Assembly: GCA_001778985.1 (NCBI GenBank)
Contig: MFIU01000004.1
Location: 67,067 to 131,066 of the forward strand
Length of the DNA stretch: 64,000 bases
From: Candidatus Giovannonibacteria bacterium RIFOXYD1_FULL_48_21
Lineage (GTDB): Bacteria; Patescibacteriota; Minisyncoccia; JACPKW01; UBA11713
Reading direction: 5' to 3'
This document shows, piece by piece, positions 5,409 through 59,333 of the stretch. The notes under the pieces were generated by a model, which had not been told where the DNA came from, made no database searches, and worked only from the letters and a program-made list of their open reading frames with translations. Every line of letters begins with the position of its first letter. Position 1 is the stretch's first letter. The position numbers were made by a program, and so were the translations under genes.

Positions 5409-7699
5409 GCCGCGATTTCAATCTCGCACACTCCGGCCACGCAGGCGAGCTCCTGCTTAACGTCGGATTCGTCCTCTTTTTCATAGGTGACTATCTTGGA
5501 AAAATCCAGGTGCGCGACTTTCCGGCTAAGCGCTTCATAGGTTTTTTCGTCAATCGCTTCGTACGGAGCGAGTTGGTAGACATAGTTCGTCCGCGGCAAA
5601 AAGGAAAGTCCGCCGACCAAATCCCAATTTTCGTACACCCAGTTGGCGACGCTAATCCATTCATCGTCTCCGACCGAAATGGTCACGGAAGGATTGTGTT
5701 CGGTGTAATGTTTCTTGACCATTTTCCAGTGCTCCAGCTGTTCGAGCGCGCTCAAGTCGTCGCGGAAGATTCCGCCTTCCGGAGCTTTGACCGGAAATTC
5801 CAGCACATATGTATTCGCGCCGTCTTTCGGCTGTCCCACCTCCGGATGATACGGTATCCCCTGGTCGCGGAGCATTTTGAACAAAGAGTCGGTCGCCGAG
5901 ATGCGCACCCGCCGGACATAGTATTGGGAATGGCGGGGATGCATGCCGGAAGCGGAATCAACCAGCTGGGAAACGGTGCCGGACGGCTTAACGCAGGTAA
6001 TCGTCGCTGAACGCCTGACCCCGAAACGCGTGGCGTATTCTTCGTTCGTCCGGAGCGCCTCGTTTTTCATTTTTTCGAGCATTTCCGGCGTCCGGACGGC
6101 CGGCGAATCCCACTGGCCGGTGATGGAAACGCCCAAGAGCCGGTCCTCTTCGCAATTTTTCTTCCATTCCGGAGAAAGATATTGAAAATCCGTAAGAGTG
6201 GACTGGTAGGTTCCAAGAATAGTGGCGAGCCGCGTCTTTCGCAAAAGCGTTTCTTCGTTGTCTTCCGCCCGGGCGATGATTTCCGTGAGGTTGCAGAACT
6301 GTTTCGGCTTCAAAATAATCTCGCCGCACGGATTCGTTCCCCATTGGATATCTTCATCTTTTACCTTTTCCCAGCGACGAGGCGGCATCGTGTATTGAAG
6401 ATTTTCGCGGTTAAAAATTCCCCGCTCCCCGGAACCGCTTTTGGCCAGCGCCAGCCATTCTTCCATAAATTCTTCGGTCGCGGGCTTTTGGTTGTAGACT
6501 GTGGAATTGTTCGCCAATGACAGCTGGGTGTCGGTGAGATAAAACTGCCCTTTTTTGGCGTCCCTCATTTCAACATCGTCAAGGTCGGAAAGCGAAATAA
6601 GGGCGCTCCGCCTTACGCCGCCGGCGACGACGCATTCGCCGATTTTGCAGATGATGTCGTGCGCGGCGCGGTTGGAAAGCCGCCGGCCTTGATATTTTAA
6701 AATCCGGGCGCGCGTAAATTCCAAAAGCTGGCGCAAAGGTTCGGGTCCGGAACTTTTCCCGCCCATGGTCTTAAGCCTGGCGCCCGCGGGCCGGAGCTTG
6801 GAAAAATCGAACTTGACGTCGTTTCCGTCGTACCAGGTCTGCATTCCGAAAGTCAAGGCGTCGGCCCAGCCCTCGCGGCTGTCCTCAACGACATAATTCA
6901 GAAGCTCTCTGCCGCCCTGCCTTTTGATTTGCGGCAAAGCTTGGATGTTTTGACTTTCCACCGAGAACCCGACCCCTGCCCCGCACATGAGAATATAGAG
7001 AATTTCCGCGAAATCTTGAATGGTTCTGGGCGCAGTGTAAGAACAATTGTAGGCGCAGACGTTAGTTTTTCGCGCCGCCTTGCCCGCGAACTGCATGAGC
7101 CGCATGGAAGGCATCACTTCTTGTTTTAAAATCGCCTCCCGGAGTTCTTCGTATTCCGCCTCCGAGAGCCGGTCCGCCAGGTTCTCTTTCATGAAGTTAA
7201 GGTAACGCCCGACGGTTTCGATCCACGTTTCCCGCCGGCCTTCTTCTTCGATCCAGCGCGCGTAAGAACGGTAGAAAACAAATTCCGAGAGAGGGTTTCT
7301 GAAATATTTTTTGCTTTCGCTAACCAGCTGACGCACATGCTCCGGAACCGCGCCGCGTTCCCGGCGGATTTCAGCCCGCTTTTCGCGGTAAAGAATGTAG
7401 GCCTTGGCCGTCTTCGCGAACCCTTGATAAATAAGTTCTTCTTCCGCCAAATCCTGCACCATCTCGACATGCGGCAGGAAGTCGCCGTTGCGGCTGACTT
7501 TTTTGAGCTTCAAAAGATCTCTATAGACGAGCTCTGAAATTTTATCGGCTTCAGCCTCGCCTGCTTCGCCGGTCGCGTAAAACGCCCGCGCCACCGCCTG
7601 CGTAATTTTTTTAATGTTGAAAGGCGCAATCTGGCCGTCGCGTTTGCGGATTTGGATTAGGGATGGAACCATGATTGCTTTTTTCAGTTCTGGGGGCAT
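5405..7699 (-). CDS. nrdJ: class II (adenosylcobalamin-dependent) ribonucleotide reductase with N-terminal ATP-cone
   Basis: ATP-cone 'IRKRDGQIAPFNIKKI', the ribonucleotide reductase (RNR) active-site 'NPCGEI' and the C-terminal thiol pair. No NrdB or NrdG partner is present and the adjacent pduO supports B12 dependence. Confidence 0.85.
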   Translation of the reverse strand: MPPELKKAIMVPSLIQIRKRDGQIAPFNIKKITQAVARAFYATGEAGEAEADKISELVYRDLLKLKKVSRNGDFLPHVEMVQDLAEEELIYQGFAKTAKAYILYREKRAEIRRERGAVPEHVRQLVSESKKYFRNPLSEFVFYRSYARWIEEEGRRETWIETVGRYLNFMKENLADRLSEAEYEELREAILKQEVMPSMRLMQFAGKAARKTNVCAYNCSYTAPRTIQDFAEILYILMCGAGVGFSVESQNIQALPQIKRQGGRELLNYVVEDSREGWADALTFGMQTWYDGNDVKFDFSKLRPAGARLKTMGGKSSGPEPLRQLLEFTRARILKYQGRRLSNRAAHDIICKIGECVVAGGVRRSALISLSDLDDVEMRDAKKGQFYLTDTQLSLANNSTVYNQKPATEEFMEEWLALAKSGSGERGIFNRENLQYTMPPRRWEKVKDEDIQWGTNPCGEIILKPKQFCNLTEIIARAEDNEETLLRKTRLATILGTYQSTLTDFQYLSPEWKKNCEEDRLLGVSITGQWDSPAVRTPEMLEKMKNEALRTNEEYATRFGVRRSATITCVKPSGTVSQLVDSASGMHPRHSQYYVRRVRISATDSLFKMLRDQGIPYHPEVGQPKDGANTYVLEFPVKAPEGGIFRDDLSALEQLEHWKMVKKHYTEHNPSVTISVGDDEWISVANWVYENWDLVGGLSFLPRTNYVYQLAPYEAIDEKTYEALSRKVAHLDFSKIVTYEKEDESDVKQELACVAGVCEIEIAA

Positions 7700-22764: not shown

Positions 22765-22877
22765 ATGAACCCCGTTAGAAAATCTCCAGATGTTTGAAAC
22801 TTCTAAAATAATTTTTTCCTTGTTAAAAAGTCTATCCAGGGCAGATAGACCCGGCTTAGATTTTCTAACGGGGTGAA
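22765..22877 (+). mobile_element. MITE-like inverted-repeat element (copy 1), inserted at the ychF start codon
   Basis: Perfect 16 bp terminal inverted repeats CCCCGTTAGAAAATCT (22770-22785) and AGATTTTCTAACGGGG (22858-22873) enclosing a 72 nt AT-rich core. They are flanked by the direct repeat TGAA (ATGAA at 22765-22769 and GTGAA at 22873-22877). Removing the element restores ATGAAAATCGGA = M-K-I-G. Confidence 0.7.
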
Positions 22878-23832
22878 AATCGGAATCGTCGGACTACCCA
22901 ACGTCGGAAAATCCACGCTCTTCCAGGCTTTGACAAAAAAAGAAGTGGATTGCTCCAACTATCCTTTCGCCACCATCGACCCCAACGTCGGGGTGGTTCA
23001 GGTGCCGGATTTACGGCTTGCCAAGCTGTCGAGCCTCTCAAATTCCCAAAAAACCATTCCCGCCATAATAGAGTTCGTGGACATCGCCGGGCTCGTGAAA
23101 GGCGCGGCTGAAGGCGAAGGCCTCGGAAACAAATTCCTCGCTCACATCCGCGACGTGGACGCCATCGTGGAGGTGGTAAGAGTTTTTGAAGACGAAAGCG
23201 TCGTTCACGTTGACGGACGGCCGAATCCGGAAAGGGACATCGCCGTGCTTGAGACGGAACTCATCCTAAAAGATATGGAAAGCATCGAAAAAGCATTGGA
23301 GAAGGCCGCTAAAGACGCGAAAACCGGAGACAAAAAAACACTCCTCCGCCTCGAAGAGCTCAAAAAACTTCAAACGGAACTCGCGAGCGGCAAAAAGGCC
23401 TGGGAAGGCGCGGAAAATCTTCTGACCGCGAAGCCCATCCTTTATTGCTTCAACTCTCAAGAGGAAAATCAGGCCTTGAAGGAAAAATTCCCCAACTCCG
23501 TTTTTCTTAATCTAAAAAAGGAATTAGAAGAAGAGGAAAAACTTCCAGAACTCGCTCGCGAAGCTTACCGGCTCCTCGGGTTGATAACCTTTTTCACGAC
23601 CGGAGAAGATGAGACCAGAGCTTGGACTATTCCCAAAGGTTCCAAGGCGCCGCGGGCCGGGCGCGCCATCCACGGCGATTTTGAAGAAAAATTCATAAAA
23701 GCGAGTGTTATCTCCTATGAAAAACTGGTCGAGGCCGGAAGCCTCGCGAAGGCGCGCGAAGCCGGCTGGCTTCGCACCGAAGGCAAGGAATATCTCGTCC
23801 AAGACGGCGACGTGATTGAATTTAAAATCTAG
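22873..23832 (+). CDS. ychF: ribosome-binding ATPase YchF (Obg-family GTPase)
   Basis: 'IGIVGLPNVGKSTLF' G1 motif and the C-terminal TGS domain. It now starts with GTG formed at the element/target-duplication junction. Confidence 0.9.
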   Translation: MKIGIVGLPNVGKSTLFQALTKKEVDCSNYPFATIDPNVGVVQVPDLRLAKLSSLSNSQKTIPAIIEFVDIAGLVKGAAEGEGLGNKFLAHIRDVDAIVEVVRVFEDESVVHVDGRPNPERDIAVLETELILKDMESIEKALEKAAKDAKTGDKKTLLRLEELKKLQTELASGKKAWEGAENLLTAKPILYCFNSQEENQALKEKFPNSVFLNLKKELEEEEKLPELAREAYRLLGLITFFTTGEDETRAWTIPKGSKAPRAGRAIHGDFEEKFIKASVISYEKLVEAGSLAKAREAGWLRTEGKEYLVQDGDVIEFKI

Positions 23833-23834
23833 CC

Positions 23835-24251
23835 GTGTTAAGATTGTCCGATATGGAACCGAAATTATACGAACTCGCCTATCTCCTCCGCAATGAACCG
23901 GAAGAAGCGCTGAAGCCGATACTCGAGAAAATCAGAGAATACATCGAGAAAAAAAATGGCCGGAGTTTAGAAGGAGTAAGCTTGAGCCGAAGACGTTTTT
24001 CCTATCCTATCCGCAAAGAAAACGAAGGCTTTTTCGGGCATCTTAAATTTTTTATAAAAGCCGAGGACCTGGCGGAACTGGAGGAAATTTTGAAGCGGGA
24101 AAAAAGCATCCTGCGCTATCTGCTGACGAAAATAAAAAGATTGGAAGCTGAAGTCCGGCCGCAGGTGCGGAGAATAAGAAAGCCGGTCGAGAAAAAAGCG
24201 GTAGACCTCGCGGAAATTGACAAAAAGCTGGAAGAAATCCTAGGCAGCTGA
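23835..24251 (+). CDS. rpsF: 30S ribosomal protein S6
   Basis: 'YELAYLL...RRRFSYPIRK' pattern parallel to S6, followed by ssb and rpsR in the canonical rpsF-ssb-rpsR order. Confidence 0.65.
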   Translation: MLRLSDMEPKLYELAYLLRNEPEEALKPILEKIREYIEKKNGRSLEGVSLSRRRFSYPIRKENEGFFGHLKFFIKAEDLAELEEILKREKSILRYLLTKIKRLEAEVRPQVRRIRKPVEKKAVDLAEIDKKLEEILGS

Positions 24252-24263
24252 TAAGCTAAAACT

Positions 24264-24375
24264 ATGAATCCCGTTAGAAAATCTAGAAACTTTTCCATAG
24301 TCAAAAAGAGTGTTTTAATTTTAAAAAACTGGCTCAGGTCGGGTCGGTTTATTATAGATTTTCTAACGGGATGAA
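24264..24375 (+). mobile_element. MITE-like inverted-repeat element (copy 2), inserted at the ssb start codon
   Basis: Terminal inverted repeats TCCCGTTAGAAAATCT (24269-24284) and AGATTTTCTAACGGGA (24356-24371), a 71 nt AT-rich core and the flanking direct repeat ATGAA (24264-24268 and 24371-24375). It has the same orientation as copy 1 and the same internal GAAACTT motif. Confidence 0.7.
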
Positions 24376-24820
24376 CTTAAATAAAGCGTTTTTAATCGGC
24401 AACCTGACGCGCGACCCGGAGCTCCGGACTTTGCCCTCCGGACAACCGGTGGCTTCTTTCGGACTGGCCACGAACCGCGTCTTTACTCGGGATGGGAAAC
24501 AGGAAAGACAGGCTGAATTTCATAATATCGTGGCCTTCGGACGCCTCGCCGAAATTGCCTCGCAGTATCTCTCCAAAGGCAAAATGGCCTTGGTGGAAGG
24601 AAGACTCGTTACCAGGAACTGGGAGGCTAAAGATGGGACAAAACGAAATCGCACCGAGATAATCGCGGAGCGGCTGCAATTGGGCCCTCGACTAGCCCCG
24701 CCTGCCGGACGGGCAGGTCAGACTGAAGCCCCCCCAGAAGAACCGAAGCGAAGCGAGGAAAAGCTGGACACCATCGAATACCCGTCAGAAGAAATCAACC
24801 CAGATGAAATCCCTTTCTAA
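24371..24820 (+). CDS. ssb: single-stranded DNA-binding protein
   Basis: OB-fold N-terminus 'MNLNKAFLIGNLTRDPELR', an acidic C-terminal tail ending '...DEIPF', located between rpsF and rpsR. Confidence 0.9.
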   Translation: MNLNKAFLIGNLTRDPELRTLPSGQPVASFGLATNRVFTRDGKQERQAEFHNIVAFGRLAEIASQYLSKGKMALVEGRLVTRNWEAKDGTKRNRTEIIAERLQLGPRLAPPAGRAGQTEAPPEEPKRSEEKLDTIEYPSEEINPDEIPF

Positions 24821-39217: not shown

Positions 39218-39407
39218 AATGGAGCCGATGGTCGGACTTGAACCGACAACCTATCGCTTATTCAGCCCGTTAGAAATCTACAGAGCCGGAGGCGAGATTC
39301 GAACTCGCGACCTTTGCTTTACGAAAGCACTGCTCTACCAACTGAGCTACTCCGGCATACATTTCTAACGGGCCGGGACGATTGCTCTGCCATTGAGCTA
39401 CATCGGC
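39218..39407 (-). tRNA. split or interrupted tRNA gene (intact D-arm, T-arm and acceptor, CCA encoded) carrying a ~128 nt insertion in the anticodon loop
   Basis: 5' half GCCGATG-TA-GCTC-AATGGCA-GAGC-A-ATCGT and 3' half GCGAT-AGGTT-GTCGG-TTCAAGT-CCGAC-CATCGGC-T-CCA. Between the two anticodon-stem strands lies CCCG-[GCCCGTTAGAAAT...ATTTCTAACGGGC]-TGAATAA, in which the 13 bp inverted repeats enclose a complete tRNA-Thr. Confidence 0.5.
39285..39356 (-). tRNA. tRNA-Thr(CGT), nested inside the interrupted tRNA
   Basis: GCCGGAG-TA-GCTC-AGTTGGTA-GAGC-A-GTGCT-TTCGTAA-AGCAA-AGGTC-GCGAG-TTCGAAT-CTCGC-CTCCGGC. A canonical 72-nt cloverleaf with U33, anticodon CGU and A37. Confidence 0.75.
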
Positions 39408-39413
39408 GATTAT

Positions 39414-39563
39414 TTAAATATAAGTATCTTCGCGCCGACGTTCGATTTTCAAGATAAATAAATTTCTTTTTTGATCACCAGCAGAAAGTTTCTTCAGTAT
39501 AATTTTTACCCTCTCGCGTTCTTTGGAAATCAGCTTCGAAAGCGCCTTTTCAATTCTGTCCAT
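39414..39563 (-). CDS. short ORF (~49 aa) downstream of a Phd/YefM antitoxin gene; candidate truncated toxin
   Basis: 'MDRIEKALSKLISKERERVKIILKKLSAGDQKRNLFILKIERRREDTYI'. Its start lies 6 nt after the antitoxin stop. Confidence 0.25.
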   Translation of the reverse strand: MDRIEKALSKLISKERERVKIILKKLSAGDQKRNLFILKIERRREDTYI

Positions 39564-39569
39564 GAAGCC

Positions 39570-39791
39570 TCAAATTCTAGCAAGGACTTCTCGCAGAGGA
39601 ATGCCTCCTTTTTTGATTTTCGTGAAATCTAACACGGTTTCCCAAAGCTCTGACTCCTCTTCCGGCGAGGAGATTTTAAATACCGGCCTCGAACGCCTTA
39701 CCACAATGAAAGAATCCCCTCTTTTCACGCGCTCAATGTAGCGTTCGGCATTTCCTCGAAGTTCTTTAAGCCCAATGACACTTTTAGCCAT
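39570..39791 (-). CDS. Phd/YefM-family type II antitoxin
   Basis: 'LKELRGNAERYIERVKRGDSFIVVRRSRPVFKI' matches the Phd/YefM fold signature. Confidence 0.65.
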   Translation of the reverse strand: MAKSVIGLKELRGNAERYIERVKRGDSFIVVRRSRPVFKISSPEEESELWETVLDFTKIKKGGIPLREVLARI

Positions 39792-40049
39792 AAAATAAGT
39801 TTATCTCAAGATAAACCTGGAGTCAATATTTAAAGTGGCGGAGGATCAAAAACACCCCGCAAACTTGCGGAGTGTTTTATTAAATACCAATCATCAGGCT
39901 CGGAACCATTTAGGAATAATGCAGACCTAGAAACAGTGCTTAGAGGAGAGAGATTTTTTCTCCATCCGCCATACAGCAATGAAGATATCTCACACTGCCG
40001 CCAGACCTGATCTTAAATGGCTCACGAGCCTGATAACGACTATTCAATT

Positions 40050-40076
40050 TTTTACTTCTAACCTCGTCTCGACCCA
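40050..40076 (+). repeat. repeat B (TTTTNCTTNTAACCTCGTCTCGACCC), copy 1 upstream of hicB; copy 2 at 41172-41199
   Basis: A ~25 nt near-identity. Copy 2 is followed by the complementary GGTCGAGGT and a CGCC-aga-GGCG hairpin. Confidence 0.5.
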
Positions 40077-40112
40077 TTGATTTTACGTCGGCAGCACACT
40101 ATCATAACCTAT

Positions 40113-40367
40113 ATGAACTCTTATACCTACCGAATAATAATAGAGCCGGATGAGAACAACACTTTTCACGCCTATGTTCCGGCGCTTCCTGGTTGCCATA
40201 CTTGGGGAGAAAGTTTTGAGGAAGCGCGTGGGAATATCCGCGATGCCATTGACGTTTACATCAGAAGCCTCACAAAAGACGGCGAGAAAATTCCTATAGA
40301 TCGCGGCGTAGAGATCGTGGAAACTATCTCTGCTTCCCGGCACAGAAAATCTTTTTCCCGTGTCTAA
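40113..40367 (+). CDS. hicB: HicB-family antitoxin
   Basis: 'YRIIIEPDENNTFHAYVPALPGCHTWGESFEEARGNIRDAIDVYI' (UPF0150/HicB RNase-H-like fold). Confidence 0.7.
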   Translation: MNSYTYRIIIEPDENNTFHAYVPALPGCHTWGESFEEARGNIRDAIDVYIRSLTKDGEKIPIDRGVEIVETISASRHRKSFSRV

Positions 40368-40593
40368 ACTTCCCCAGATTAAAGACCGGGAGTTGATCCG
40401 AGCGTTAAAGAAACTCGGATTTTTTGAGCATCCGGAACGCGGCAGTTCTCATTTGGTCTTTGCACATCAAGACGGAAGACGCGCCACCGTGTCTCGCCAT
40501 CCAGGCAAAAACATTCCCAGAGGCACTCTCCGCGCCATCATGCGCGACATCAATATTTCTCCTCAAGAATTCACCAGACTTTTGAAGCAGTAA
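40360..40593 (+). CDS. hicA: HicA-family toxin (mRNA interferase)
   Basis: 'ALKKLGFFEHPERGSSHLVFAHQDGRRATVSRHPGKNIPRGTLRAIMRDI'. Overlaps hicB by 8 nt. Confidence 0.7.
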   Translation: MSKLPQIKDRELIRALKKLGFFEHPERGSSHLVFAHQDGRRATVSRHPGKNIPRGTLRAIMRDINISPQEFTRLLKQ

Positions 40594-40614
40594 TTTTTCT
40601 CAAAGAACTCTCAG
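40592..40614 (+). repeat. repeat A (TAATTTTTCTCAAAGAACTNTC), copy 1, abutting the hicA stop codon; copy 2 at 41116-41138 abuts the DUF2283 stop
   Basis: A 22/23 nt identity between 40592-40614 and 41116-41138, each beginning at or next to a stop codon. Copy 1 is tandemly half-duplicated at 40626-40645. Confidence 0.5.
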
Positions 40615-40886
40615 AGTCCTCGAGATTTCTCAAGAACTCAATCGAGTGGGGGAAGATATTGAGTCCTCCCCCCTCTAAAGTTTGAGATTGATTTCCTTCA
40701 CTACACTGTTATATTATGGGTACAGGCATGGAAAGATTCAGCTCACCCTTTGGAATTATAGAACTGACTTCTGATTTTTTATTCACCTGTCCCGGGCAAG
40801 AAATATCTCGCCATAGTCGTAAAGATAAACCGCCGAAATTTTATCCTAACCGCTTACGTTACCAATAAAATTCAACATCTGCCGCT

Positions 40887-41114
40887 ATGAAACTCCATTA
40901 TTATTACGACCGAGAAGCAGACGTACTCTATTTCTCGCAAGGGAAGCCGTCCCGGAAAGACATCTCTGAAGAAGCGTCTGACGACGTGGTGCTTCGTCTT
41001 GACCCCAGAACCAAAAAGGTAAAAGGATTTACTATCCTCAATTTCGCCAAACGAGGCGCGAAGAAATACGCGCCGCTCTCGTTGCCTATCAAAGCCGAAC
41101 TCTTGCCGGCTTGA
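40887..41114 (+). CDS. DUF2283-family small protein
   Basis: 'YYYDREADVLYFSQGKP...' is the characteristic DUF2283 N-terminus. Confidence 0.5.
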   Translation: MKLHYYYDREADVLYFSQGKPSRKDISEEASDDVVLRLDPRTKKVKGFTILNFAKRGAKKYAPLSLPIKAELLPA

Positions 41115-41390
41115 CTTAATTTTTCTCAAAGAACTTTCGACTCGTTTTTGCGAATCGAGATGAGATTACAAGTTTTTGCTTTTAACCTCGTCTCGACCCG
41201 CCCGCCAGAGGCGGGTAAATAGGTCGAGGTCACTCATATATATTTTAAGATTCGCCTTGGAACTCTCTCCTCTAGAGTTGGAGAGAATTATGGAGATGAG
41301 TTCTTGAGTGAACCTGCGGGCCAATATATATTATTTGATTCCTCATTAAAAAGAAAATTCCGCGCGCGCCCACTTGTTGACTTTTCCTAA

Positions 41391-54420: not shown

Positions 54421-54495
54421 TTAAATTCCTTTATGCCTCCTCCTAATCTCCTCCTCCACTTCTTCTCTGGGGCGGGTGAACTTGGAGCGGGAGTA
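54421..54495 (-). repeat. peptide-conserving 3'-end repeat, copy A (other copies at 55669-55770 and 56943-57016)
   Basis: Core TGCCTCCTCCT(A/T)ATCTCCTCCTCNACTTCTTCTCTGGGGCGG plus a flanking ...TTGGAGCGG. On the minus strand all three copies encode SRSK(F/Y)xRPREEVEEEIRRRH(K/H)(G/A). The nucleotide differences fall mostly on synonymous positions (GTG/GTT/GTC Val and ATT/ATA Ile). Confidence 0.7.
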
Positions 54496-55628: not shown

Positions 55629-55761
55629 ATTTTATGTTTATTAGTTTAATAAAATCCTCCTGCCTAAATTATATTGCTTTTTCTGGAGTCGCGCCAGCGT
55701 GGTGCCTCCTCCTAATCTCCTCCTCAACTTCTTCTCTGGGGCGGCCGTATTTGGAGCGGTC

Positions 55762-55989
55762 TCATAAATGTTTAGAAAATTCTCCGGGTGTCACTTCGAT
55801 CTCCCGCAGAATCTGCCGCAGGAGCCCGCGGCCGATATCTTCTCCGCCGTGCCTAGGAACCAAAGTGGTTCTGCCATCCGGATGTTTAAAAAAGATATGA
55901 GAACCAACTTGACGAAAACCTCTAAAGCCGAACTTCTCTAAAACGCGCATAACATCGCGCGCCTTTAGCATCGGCAAGCGGCCTTTCAT
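55762..55989 (-). CDS. hicA: HicA-family toxin
   Basis: 'VLEKFGFRGFRQVGSHIFFKHPDGRTTLVPRHGGEDIGRGLLRQIL'. Confidence 0.7.
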   Translation of the reverse strand: MKGRLPMLKARDVMRVLEKFGFRGFRQVGSHIFFKHPDGRTTLVPRHGGEDIGRGLLRQILREIEVTPGEFSKHL

Positions 55990-56942: not shown

Positions 56943-59333
56943 TTATCCACCTTTATGCCTCCTCCTTATCTCCTCCTCGACTTCTTCTCTGGGGCGGCTG
57001 TACTTTGAACGGGAGAGCTGCTTAATATAATCGGCCATCTGGGGGTTGCCGGTTTCGGGCGGAATGGTTTTTATATTGAAAGGTTTTGAAGTCTGCCCGT
57101 CAATCAATAATTTTAGATAGGCGTTATAGTTATCGATATTCAGCAAGTCGTGGGCAGAGAATACGGGTTGAAACTGCTTCTCCATATACTCGCCGTCGTC
57201 CGAGCCGATTCTGAAGGAACAAATAGAACCGACGTTTCCAAAGACCGCTTTCTGAATCTCTTCCTCGAGCTGTCCGATGAACTGGTGAGTTAAAATGAGG
57301 TTCAATTTATACTTTCTCGCTTCGGAAAGTATGGTCGCGATGGACTTAGTTGTGACGTTTTGGAACTCATCGATATAAAGGTAAAAATCGGGACGTTGGG
57401 ATTCGTCAACGTTTACTCTGGATAGCGCGGCCATCAAAATTTTACCAACCATAATTAGCCCGAGGAGCGACGAGTTAAGCTCGCCTAGGCGCCCCTTGGA
57501 AAGATTCAACAGCAAAATCTTTTTATTATCCATCACCTCGCGGATATTGAAGGCGGATTTCTCCTGCGCGATGATTGGGCGCATTATTTCGTTTGCAAGA
57601 AATGTGTCGAATTTCGAGACCACATAAGGCACCATGTTCTGCAAAGCGGCCTCGCCGCCGGCTTTCTCGGCAATCTGTTTCCAGAAGGTCTCAACCACGA
57701 TATTTTTCGAGCGGGAAAGTTTGTAGTCGCGAAAGGATTTATCCGCCAAAACGCGCTCAATCTCCAAAAGGGTGTTCCCTGACTCCGGATCGTCCATCAC
57801 CAGCAAAGCGGCATTCCTGAAATACTGCTCGAACATCGGGCCTCCGGCGACTGACATATTGAAAAGCTTGTTGAAGATTTCCAAAAGCTCGTTCACTATC
57901 ATGGTTTTCTGCTCCGGACGCGCCGCATCATACTCCAGCATGTTAAGCCCCATGGGATATTGAACGTCTCCGGGGTCAAAATAAATCACGTCCTCGGCGC
58001 GCTCGCGCGGGACGAGCGCTAAAATTTTTTCGATAAGCTCTCCGTGCGGGTCAATCACCGCGACTCCCTCGCCCGCTCGTATATCCTGAATAATCATGTT
58101 CTGCATTAAGACTGATTTTCCGGTTCCGGTCTGGCCGATGGTATAAAAATGCCTGCGCCGGTCGTCTTTTTTAATCCTTACTTCCTGGGAAGTTCCGCGA
58201 AAAGCGCTCCTGCCGACTAAAATTCCCTCCTTTGGAAGATTTACGGGCGGGGCCGCCTCTCGGGCTTTTAGCATCCGCACCTGGGGTGCGGCTTTCTTGG
58301 AATACGGAAAATGATAAATGCTTGCGATTTCCTCCACGTTGAGCGGTATCGCCGTATCTTCATCAAAAAACCTGAAAGAAAAATCTTCATTTAACTTGCG
58401 AAGCCTACTTCCAAAAACGTTCCGGATTTTGAATGAATTTCCCTCGGGACTCGAGAATTGATAAAAACCGGCTTCAAATTCTTTCATAATTCGATCGGTT
58501 TCTGCGTCTGATCCGGCAGAAACAATGAGGCGAACATTCGCGTCGAAAATCATCTTGCCTGCTTTCTCCTCCAGTATCTTTACAAGCTCCTCATCGTAGA
58601 CTACGGGTTTGTTTTTTTCCTCGGGCCTCTGGCTTTTCGGTTTTTTGAAAATTTCAATTGTTTCTTCCGCCAAACTTTTTTCTCCCAGAACCTCTTTTCT
58701 TGATTTCCCCTGCTTTAACTTCTCCGTAACGCTATGTATCGACTTTTCGAGCTTTTCTGCTGAAGGCCGCAGTACAAGCTGTAGGGCGGCTCCTTCGTCG
58801 AACTCGTCAATCTTCGAGAAAGCAGAGGTTATAGTTTCAACAGGATCTGACTCTATTTTTTGATAAGTTTTCAAAGGCAGGAATTTATTTTTTTCAAGTT
58901 CCAGAATCGCACCGCGGGATATTCCGTCCGGATTAAAAATGTTGTAATCGTTTACTTTGTCTATTTTGGCTTCCGGAAATGCGCCATGCAGCTGGCCCTC
59001 GACGAGTTTTTCGAATTTTCGTGGTGCGGCCACATAAAAAAATATCTCCGCTCCGTTATTGTGCGCCGCGAGCTCCAGGGCAAAACTTTTATTCTTCATT
59101 CCGCCAAAGCCCATCAAAAACTTTTCCATCTGGGCGATGAAATTTTTTCTGGCTTCATTTGGGTTTTCCTTACCTTCCTCGCGGCTTTCCGGAACGCTCA
59201 CCAAGAAAAGCTGAAGCGAAAGGCTCGAAGATATGGCGCTTGTTCTCTTGTAGCGTAAATAAAAAAAGAGAATTACTAAAATGGGGACGAGGAGAACAAA
59301 GAAAGTCGTGAAAATAAAGGCGCCGTCATTCAT
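56943..59333 (-). CDS. membrane-anchored FtsK/TraG/VirD4-superfamily P-loop ATPase (type IV coupling-protein-like)
   Basis: An N-terminal TM helix, Walker A 'YTIGQTGTGKSVLM', Walker B 'FYLYIDEFQNV' about 275 aa downstream (T4CP-like spacing) and 'DPHGE'. Its last ~22 aa are encoded by repeat copy C. Confidence 0.6.
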   Translation of the reverse strand: MNDGAFIFTTFFVLLVPILVILFFYLRYKRTSAISSSLSLQLFLVSVPESREEGKENPNEARKNFIAQMEKFLMGFGGMKNKSFALELAAHNNGAEIFFYVAAPRKFEKLVEGQLHGAFPEAKIDKVNDYNIFNPDGISRGAILELEKNKFLPLKTYQKIESDPVETITSAFSKIDEFDEGAALQLVLRPSAEKLEKSIHSVTEKLKQGKSRKEVLGEKSLAEETIEIFKKPKSQRPEEKNKPVVYDEELVKILEEKAGKMIFDANVRLIVSAGSDAETDRIMKEFEAGFYQFSSPEGNSFKIRNVFGSRLRKLNEDFSFRFFDEDTAIPLNVEEIASIYHFPYSKKAAPQVRMLKAREAAPPVNLPKEGILVGRSAFRGTSQEVRIKKDDRRRHFYTIGQTGTGKSVLMQNMIIQDIRAGEGVAVIDPHGELIEKILALVPRERAEDVIYFDPGDVQYPMGLNMLEYDAARPEQKTMIVNELLEIFNKLFNMSVAGGPMFEQYFRNAALLVMDDPESGNTLLEIERVLADKSFRDYKLSRSKNIVVETFWKQIAEKAGGEAALQNMVPYVVSKFDTFLANEIMRPIIAQEKSAFNIREVMDNKKILLLNLSKGRLGELNSSLLGLIMVGKILMAALSRVNVDESQRPDFYLYIDEFQNVTTKSIATILSEARKYKLNLILTHQFIGQLEEEIQKAVFGNVGSICSFRIGSDDGEYMEKQFQPVFSAHDLLNIDNYNAYLKLLIDGQTSKPFNIKTIPPETGNPQMADYIKQLSRSKYSRPREEVEEEIRRRHKGG

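Follow-up and report, generated by a model that had tools for sequence, protein, structure and literature searches.

We analysed a 64-kb stretch of DNA (hereafter the window) from a Candidatus Giovannonibacteria bacterium, a member of the Patescibacteria or Candidate Phyla Radiation (CPR) with a tiny genome, known from aquifer (groundwater) metagenomes, and found two hairpin elements of about 100 nt, el1 and el2, standing at the start codons of ychF and ssb. Both are very probably recent insertions of a small non-autonomous element that resembles a MITE (miniature inverted-repeat transposable element) and has an arbitrary core of ∼72 nt, the two genes probably being kept expressed by frames that run through the element. 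Comparison with a relative that lacks the elements showed that el1 and el2 landed on TGAA, a tetranucleotide made up of bases 2-3 of the start codon and the two bases after it (A|TGAA). With G or A as its last base, the element rebuilds a start together with the downstream TG (GTG in ychF, ATG in ssb), and the YchF and SSB proteins are unaltered by the insertions. In window coordinates, the features of the two loci are:

22770-22873, plus strand: el1, a hairpin element of 104 nt with a 72-nt core; the corresponding site is empty in the relative L039.
22770-22785 and 22858-22873: the arms of el1; the last base, G22873, is base 1 of the ychF GTG.
24269-24371, plus strand: el2, a hairpin element of 103 nt with a 71-nt core; the site is likewise empty in L039.
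24269-24285 and 24355-24371: the arms of el2; the last base, A24371, is base 1 of the ssb ATG.
22766-22769, plus strand: left copy of TGAA at el1, inside the old ychF start ATGAA (22765-22769).
22874-22877, plus strand: right copy of TGAA at el1, made of bases 2-3 of the GTG and the first 2 bases of ychF codon 2.
24265-24268, plus strand: left copy of TGAA at el2, inside the old ssb start ATGAA (24264-24268).
24372-24375, plus strand: right copy of TGAA at el2, inside the rebuilt ssb start.
22873-23832, plus strand: ychF, 319 aa, with a GTG start formed by the last base of the element and the duplicated TG.
24371-24820, plus strand: ssb, 149 aa, with an ATG start at 24371.

The sequence of el1 in its context is ATGAA|CCCCGTTAGAAAATCT-72 nt-AGATTTTCTAACGGGG|TGAAAATC, and that of el2 is ATGAA|TCCCGTTAGAAAATCT-71 nt-AGATTTTCTAACGGGA|TGAACTTA. 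Their termini are perfect inverted repeats of 16-18 bp (YCCCGTTAGAAAATCT); with the flanking A/T included, 17/17 positions are complementary in el1 and 20/21 in el2. An initial annotation of this DNA had described perfect terminal repeats around cores of 71-72 nt with TGAA on either side, and both descriptions hold, TGAA being read directly at all four flanking positions. The length of ∼108 bp that it gave does not; 108 and 107 nt are the spacings of the old and new start codons. The arm 15-mer CCCGTTAGAAAATCT has exactly four matches in the 64 kb, which are the arms of el1 and el2, and all further matches carry 3 mismatches. No significant similarity was detected between the two cores, so only the arms are common to both elements. 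The only coding content of el1 and el2 is open reading frames (ORFs) of 10-36 codons without family matches. The genes at the two loci are firmly identified, YchF by PF01926/PF06071 and SSB by PF00436 in Pfam, and the neighbours are pgm, trpS, rpsF and rpsR.

The insertions can be read directly from L039, a relative whose YchF is 93% identical and in which both sites are empty. There the pgm-ychF spacer measures 13 nt (junction ...cattagtcttaattatATGAAAATCGGAATC...) and the rpsF-ssb spacer 12 nt (junction ...ctgataagctaaagctATGAATTTAAAC...). At both loci the L039 sequence equals the window sequence minus the element and minus one TGAA, base for base; TGAA is present in one copy in L039 and in two in the window. 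These empty sites match what was predicted for insertion with a 4-bp duplication, and they bear out the proposal of the initial annotation that a MITE-like insertion recreated the start codons through a duplicated target. Two further relatives at 68% identity (L040 and L042) also lack both elements, and all fetched contigs of the same species that span the sites carry el1 and el2 unchanged. In L040, the rpsF-ssb spacer holds an inverted-repeat element of another kind, 97 nt long (CCCCGCCCTCT...AGAGGGCGGGG; 7517-7613); this spacer has thus been struck independently by a further element type.

The same evidence bears on the alternative that el1 and el2 are ancestral structured 5' leaders, such as a riboswitch, a protein-binding operator or an attenuator, and not insertions at all. 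Both lie directly 5' of start codons, their leaders fold far better than shuffled sequences (z = -5.1 and -5.6 for el1 and el2, reached by 0/200 shuffles), and the arms covary across members of the family described below, all of which speaks for such leaders. Nothing but the short spacers is present in L039, however, and the relatives at 68% identity are without elements too. A search of el1 and el2 against Rfam (gathering threshold; E <= 10) returned nothing relevant, and the same termini are found next to a tRNA, inside other elements, in the leader of an insertion sequence (IS) and in a tRNA anticodon loop. We therefore give the ancestral-leader explanation virtually no chance of being right.

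The termini of el1 and el2 define a superfamily, YCCCGTTAGA...TCTAACGGGR, which recurs with recurrent flanks on ∼20 other contigs, two of them from Candidatus Giovannonibacteria and most of them unclassified; the repeats are thus found elsewhere, as expected of a mobile element. Scans with the exact arms gave 3 true members in a species-representative genome collection and ∼14 in a metagenome collection, together with chance matches and unrelated palindromes. Sister subfamilies were found by scanning the fetched contigs with the 7-mer CCCGTTA, and their arm interiors read AGAAAT, AGAAGT, AGAGGTT, AGAGAATC, AGAAT or AGAAC. Several members can lie on one sequence, with 3 in the window, 5 on contig L016, at least 3 on L033 and several on L025. 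The main subfamily has a near-constant length of ∼98-104 nt; its cores are unalignable between loci, and core homology above shuffle level was seen only for same-contig copies and orthologous loci.

Family statistics were computed on 24 tabulated elements. Perfect 4-bp flanking repeats are present in 13 of them against 2.5 expected by permutation, where none of 5000 permutations reached 13. Reading outward, the flank has T at position +1 in 41/48 ends and A at position +4 in 40/48, so it can be written as TNNA (TGAA, TGGA, TGCA, TTTA/TAAA or TTGA). TGAA is accordingly the target at el1 and el2, as annotated at first, but not in general, and about half of the members lie off start codons. Changes on both sides of the stem were observed at 8 of 16 positions, and the terminal pair is C-G in 14 members, T-A in 9 and G-C in 1 and mismatched in none; the search pattern fixed 11 inner bases per arm and left free the terminal pair, the CCC/GGG tips, the flanks and the sister subfamilies. 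Some elements are nested in elements of related subfamilies with the flank CTTCG (L017 1465-1700, L028 93-308, L025 467-560 and 6300-6410), and mini-hairpins of 29-53 nt that consist of the arms alone (for example CCCCGTTAGAAAcgaggTTTCTAACGGGG) were seen among these loci. Pattern scans of viral contigs gave no matches. Being shorter than ∼500 bp and without a transposase gene, bounded by terminal inverted repeats, duplicated at the target relative to an empty site and dispersed in several copies, the elements have the structure of MITEs. The part of that name which implies a classical, transposase-driven element is no more than putative, since no autonomous partner was found in the window or the fetched loci.

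Several scan matches were discarded. Those on L014 and L022 were due to chance, and those on L019, L020/L027, L026/L031 and L034 have only GTTAGAAAATC in common with the family, inside other, longer palindromes. One of these palindromes was recovered at the same locus in two samples (L020 6023-6115 and L027 605-697); it is long and perfect, and its central ∼49 nt are inverted in one relative to the other, so the segment either is invertible or recombines through its arms. The cores were also considered as decayed tRNAs; the real tRNA-Thr cargo described below apart, ARAGORN with relaxed thresholds found no more of these than in shuffles.

The relation of the family to start codons extends beyond ychF and ssb. 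In 9/24 members the last element base serves as base 1 of the start codon of an actual gene, namely ychF, ssb, rplB, rpmC, rpsQ, tsaD and three others, and in 3 further members an ATG follows 3-5 nt downstream, behind a TAA that the flank creates (GGGGTAAATG). The rplB, rpmC and rpsQ copies belong to a sister subfamily of ∼118 nt and lie in one ribosomal-protein operon on L016 (1931-2049, 4682-4800 and 4988-5106, respectively). They carry TCCCGTTAGAAATC[A/G]CAGACACAG..., and the rpmC and rpsQ copies are near-identical; at rpsQ the arm in addition provides rpmC, whose end overlaps, with a newly formed stop (TCC CGT TAG). In general, the frame opened by the old ATG into the element reads ATG NAY CCC GTT AGA AAA TC, and stops are supplied as a TAA in one frame by the 3' arm and in a second frame by the TGAA/TAAA flank. 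At the two window loci the resulting upstream ORFs (uORFs) are:

22765-22797, plus strand: uORF1 of el1, from the old ychF ATG (MNPVRKSPDV*), in the ychF frame and stopped after 10 codons.
22790-22876, plus strand: uORF2 of el1, 28 codons (MFETSK...DFLTG*), starting at an ATG that overlaps uORF1's end and stopping at a TGA that overlaps the ychF GTG (GGGGTGA).
24264-24374, plus strand: the ORF of el2, 36 codons, from the old ssb ATG through the element; its TGA overlaps the new ATG (ATGA).

The 36-codon ORF through the second copy and its ATGA overlap with ssb are thus present as first noted; such an ORF is, however, a general property of start-codon copies, the first copy included, and not a trait of the second alone. 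Among 8 independent start-abutting elements, 7 contain an ORF whose length equals or exceeds that of the core and whose stop is the 3'-arm TAA or a start-overlapping TGA, lying on the rebuilt start or within 8 nt of it. Core shuffles gave an expectation of 0.69 (Poisson-binomial P = 1.2e-7), in a test that was devised after the pattern had been seen and in which 2 of the 8 elements are related copies.

The stem by itself is predicted to contribute about -26.6 kcal/mol. The predicted ensemble has the first two bases of the new start codon paired (P 0.93-1.0) and leaves the old AUG directly 5' of the stem unpaired. The earlier suggestion was that the stem could modulate translation initiation; it probably does more than that, and with the start bases paired at P >= 0.93 it would block initiation unless it is opened. 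Shine-Dalgarno-like motifs were found at only 6/47 window genes. Hexamers resembling a -10 box (TATAAT-like) end 7-8 nt upstream of the ATG in 11/39 window genes; this position is the signature of leaderless transcripts and suggests that leaderless mRNAs are widespread. At the empty sites, TANNNT hexamers stand at the leaderless position, TAGTCT for ychF and TAAGCT for ssb. From a genome of this Shine-Dalgarno-poor, leaderless type we infer translational coupling through the hairpin, and coupling by termination and reinitiation through the element probably keeps ychF and ssb translated.

In such a mechanism, the old ATG with its promoter or coupling context would remain intact and unpaired just 5' of the hairpin and would open a short frame into the element. 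The frame in el2 would cross fully to the TGA at the new ATG; in el1, the first frame would end after 10 codons atop a second ATG, and the frame from that ATG would end at the TGA overlapping the GTG. Translating ribosomes would melt the stem that hides the new start, terminate on that codon and re-initiate there. In a genome with leaderless starts, overlapping stop/start coupling and few Shine-Dalgarno sites, ychF and ssb could remain expressed in this way. A promoter or terminator borne by the element was considered and rejected: 1 promoter-like and 4 terminator-like sites were counted in 1.9 kb, no more than in shuffles, and the consensus scan placed no terminator-like site inside the elements. 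On the minus strand, an inner hairpin with a T-run behind it did not pass the scan.

The hairpin could instead be a mobile sequence that the host has co-opted as a regulatory device, either an RNase III site as in the Correia elements or a site for a global regulator, with the ORFs being incidental. Perfect arms of 16-25 bp that are kept complementary by compensatory change while the cores drift would fit this idea, and half of the members lie no more than 10 nt from a start codon. The 17-bp stem is also close to the size of an RNase III substrate. Neither a processing site nor an operator would foresee the excess of core-spanning ORFs at starts, however, and many copies lie away from genes. 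Moreover, presence and absence vary between close relatives at essential genes, which means that the hairpin is not needed for their expression. Taken together, we judge co-option to be distinctly improbable.

A third member of the superfamily in the window differs from el1 and el2 in carrying a tRNA gene and in its site, which is itself a tRNA gene:

39265-39373, minus strand: the third member, with arms GCCCGTTAGAAAT...ATTTCTAACGGGC and CCCGTTAGAAAT inverted repeats.
39283-39356, minus strand: the inner tRNA-Thr(CGT), intact, within the third member.
39220-39407, minus strand: the resident tRNA-Thr(CGT), its anticodon split by the third member into a 5' half (39378-39407) and a 3' half (39220-39257).

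The third member lies between the two anticodon-stem strands of the resident tRNA, and the RNA is predicted to fold as one cloverleaf inside another, with a 15-bp stem linking the two. An intact ortholog of the outer tRNA is present in L059 (2340-2412; tRNA-Thr(CGT) with the loop TTCGTAA), and the inner tRNA is similar to the tRNA-Thr of L061, which is more distantly related. Four fetched contigs from other samples show the identical split arrangement. With the resident tRNA split and the inner tRNA-Thr intact, this cargo-bearing member appears to have destroyed the resident gene while carrying its replacement. The outer tRNA was also considered as an intron-containing gene and this was rejected, ARAGORN making no intron call and no simple splice yielding a canonical loop. 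Next to this locus, the window (39411-41390) and L059 (2413-3000), a 92% relative, differ in the toxin-antitoxin modules that lie between tRNA-Gly/tRNA-Thr and prfB, with HicAB-like and Phd-like modules in the window and Phd/ParE in L059.

As to what may move these elements, no transposase, integrase or HUH (Y1) protein was found among the window ORFs of at least 150 aa, and no full-length element or mobility gene with matching ends was found in the window or at the fetched loci. On other contigs, we found a sister cassette of 285 bp that consists of TCCCGTTACAAAT, an ORF for an 85-aa GIY-YIG protein, and ATTTGTAACGGGA, with 13-bp inverted ends. No such cassette is present in the window. Its positions are:

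L033 376-660; L043 1980-2263; L051-L058; L062; L063 3545-3827: GIY-YIG cassettes.

The first 8 nt of the cassette are common to the element arms, the T(G/A)AA flank is the same, and the stop codon of the GIY-YIG ORF lies within the right arm of the cassette. The 85-aa protein matches PF01541 (E = 1.5e-16), and its nearest solved structures are the UPF0213 proteins 1zg2 and 1ywl. More than 2000 homologs were detected, nearly all of exactly 85 aa, mostly on short contigs and abundant in metagenomes; the homolog loci that were examined have the same cassette ends. In homologous IS5-like elements the cassette occupies two different positions, so that each copy provides the empty site of the other. 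In two independent contexts, an element of the CCCCGTTAGA type stands at a distance of 35-50 nt from the cassette.

These observations bear on two possible routes of mobilisation. One is a classical DDE transposase acting in trans (IS1380/piggyBac-like or IS5-like) with a 4-nt staggered cut at TNNA, which would account for the 4-bp duplications with matching empty sites and for the perfect flank repeats of 13/24 members; CCC ends together with TNNA flanks are also reminiscent of piggyBac and IS1380. Neither the 64 kb nor the fetched loci yielded a transposase with such ends, however. The IS5-like elements next to the cassettes were rejected as a parent IS because their ends differ (GAGACCTTTGCA...), and the covariation of the arms and three insertions without duplication are unexpected for simple end-binding transposition. 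We regard a DDE transposase as a real possibility that falls somewhat short of an even chance.

The other route is a small GIY-YIG nuclease that acts on the hairpin form of the element, along a single-strand DNA (ssDNA) path like that of the Ssn proteins. Small GIY-YIG proteins with hairpin repeats on either side cut ssDNA in a sequence-specific manner (PMC11893778), and the tips, flank and arm-embedded stop of the cassette, its numerous near-uniform homologs on mostly short contigs, its two sites in homologous IS5-like copies and its proximity to the CCCCGTTAGA-type element would all be consistent with such activity. On the other side, the cassette is absent from the window and has only the 8 terminal nt in common with the elements. 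The published SRM consensus (HGTCWY..RNCYNB) scores 0 matches in the whole window, el1, el2 and the tRNA element included, and in three cassettes. No transposition by Ssn proteins is known, and a clean 4-bp duplication is no obvious outcome of ssDNA cleavage. The GIY-YIG route thus appears unlikely. It is an equally tentative idea that the ∼100-nt start-codon elements and the tRNA-Thr element are non-autonomous or cargo-bearing relatives of the cassette, mobilised by its nuclease via a single-stranded hairpin and with ends that have evolved to be transparent to translation. If this were true, the cassette would be the smallest known autonomous transposon and would represent a new class of GIY-YIG-driven DNA transposition, and the translation-transparent ends would let the elements colonise the starts of essential genes in ultra-compact leaderless genomes.

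Several points weigh against the reading of el1 and el2 as MITE-like insertions that are read through by coupled frames. Identical flanks are lacking in 11/24 members. Three insertions with known empty sites occurred without duplication, namely the tRNA element in the window and the cassette in an IS5-like ORF (two diverged copies); the filled sites have an extra T(G/A)AA on one side and, on the opposite side, CCCG, which repeats the arm tip. The tetranucleotide may therefore be part of the element, or may undergo recombination with a target that matches it, instead of arising from a staggered cut. One start-abutting member, L037, is without a core-spanning ORF, and a milder excess of open frames is also seen in elements off start codons (23/90 frames). 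The coupling model itself was built entirely from sequence statistics. A search of the window and the fetched loci gave no transposase with matching ends, and MITE is therefore used here as a structural label only.

Two other observations were made in the window. A single ORF of 484 aa on the plus strand (245-1696) encodes domains of three kinds: LexA DNA-binding, S24 peptidase and N6/N4 DNA methylase. A 66-nt repeat is present three times (54428-54493, 55697-55762 and 56950-57015) at a spacing of ∼1.26 kb, the copies being 82-91% identical. The repeats run through ORFs without Pfam matches, and their minus strand contains GGAGGAGG; an ORF starts just downstream of the copy at 54428-54493, and the third copy extends over the 3' end of a gene for a TrwB/VirD4-like ATPase.

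CPR genomes are small and tightly packed, and the start codon is one of the few places where a mobile element would not be lethal. The ends of the elements described here rebuild the start, supply adjacent stops and leave an open frame from the old start, which offers an example of selfish DNA and translation initiation co-adapting in a leaderless, Shine-Dalgarno-poor organism. For annotation, ignoring such elements leads to misread start codons, misread short ORFs and misread "intergenic" lengths. The tRNA-carrying copy and the 285-bp GIY-YIG cassette point to an unrecognised mobilisation system. In the literature we found no description of MITEs in the CPR and no direct precedent for MITEs at start codons or for GIY-YIG genes with terminal repeats. 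A MITE-like element is as such a known kind; its start-codon-adapted ends, the ORF through it, the covarying arms and the relatives with tRNA or GIY-YIG cargo are undescribed in the literature searched.

Among known systems, integron attC sites can be set aside, since they need RYYYAAC...GTTRRRY and the polarity here is the opposite (GTTAGA...TCTAAC); the DNA between el1 and el2 also consists of the core genes ychF and rpsF and not of cassettes. piggyBac has CCC... ends and inserts at TTAA, and IS1380 has CC ends and 4-5 bp duplications. The present elements are similar in their CC(C) ends (YCCC here) and their 4-bp T..A flank, and the arm CCC(GT)TAGAAAA resembles the piggyBac end CCCTAGAAAGATA, a resemblance that we take as a lead only. 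They differ in that the flank is TNNA and not TTAA, that the arms covary, and that no DDE transposase was found in the sequence examined. REPIN/RAYT and IS200/IS605 systems have arms that are small palindromes or subterminal hairpins. The likeness lies in hairpin doublets of ∼100 nt with conserved arms and drifting spacers and, in some copies, a fixed flanking tetranucleotide; those systems, however, make no target duplication, whereas here the terminal repeats are long and perfect, 13/24 members have 4-bp duplications, and the window proteins of at least 150 aa include no HUH/Y1 transposase.

The Ssn family comprises GIY-YIG proteins of ∼94 aa that are flanked by hairpin repeats and cut ssDNA beside these repeats (Chenal et al., 2025; PMC11893778), and its repeat-gene-repeat architecture resembles an insertion sequence according to its authors (PMC11893778). 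Common to both systems is a single-domain GIY-YIG gene of ∼90 aa between inverted repeat copies that are also scattered genome-wide. The cassette flanks here are half-sites that pair across the gene, in contrast to local hairpins, and the tie of the cassette to el1 and el2 consists of the 8 terminal bases in common and the proximity on other contigs.

In overall form the elements are comparable to the Correia elements (NEMIS) of Neisseria, which are non-coding, ∼100-150 bp long and intergenic, have terminal inverted repeats and a target duplication, and are co-transcribed with neighbouring genes, whose expression the hairpin can influence. The duplication made by Correia elements is TA, their repeats measure 26 bp, their cores are conserved, and they occur in hundreds of copies; here the flank is TNNA, the arms measure 16-18 bp, the cores are unrelated within one genome, and the copy number is low, at 3 in 64 kb. 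A further difference is that the ends described here rebuild a start codon upon insertion at A|TGNA. The Rickettsia palindromic elements are likewise small, palindromic, mobile and compatible with translation, and are tolerated in essential genes of reduced genomes. Those elements enter coding sequences in frame and become a translated segment of the protein, whereas the elements in the present genome lie at the start codon and would be read as a separate, coupled upstream ORF.

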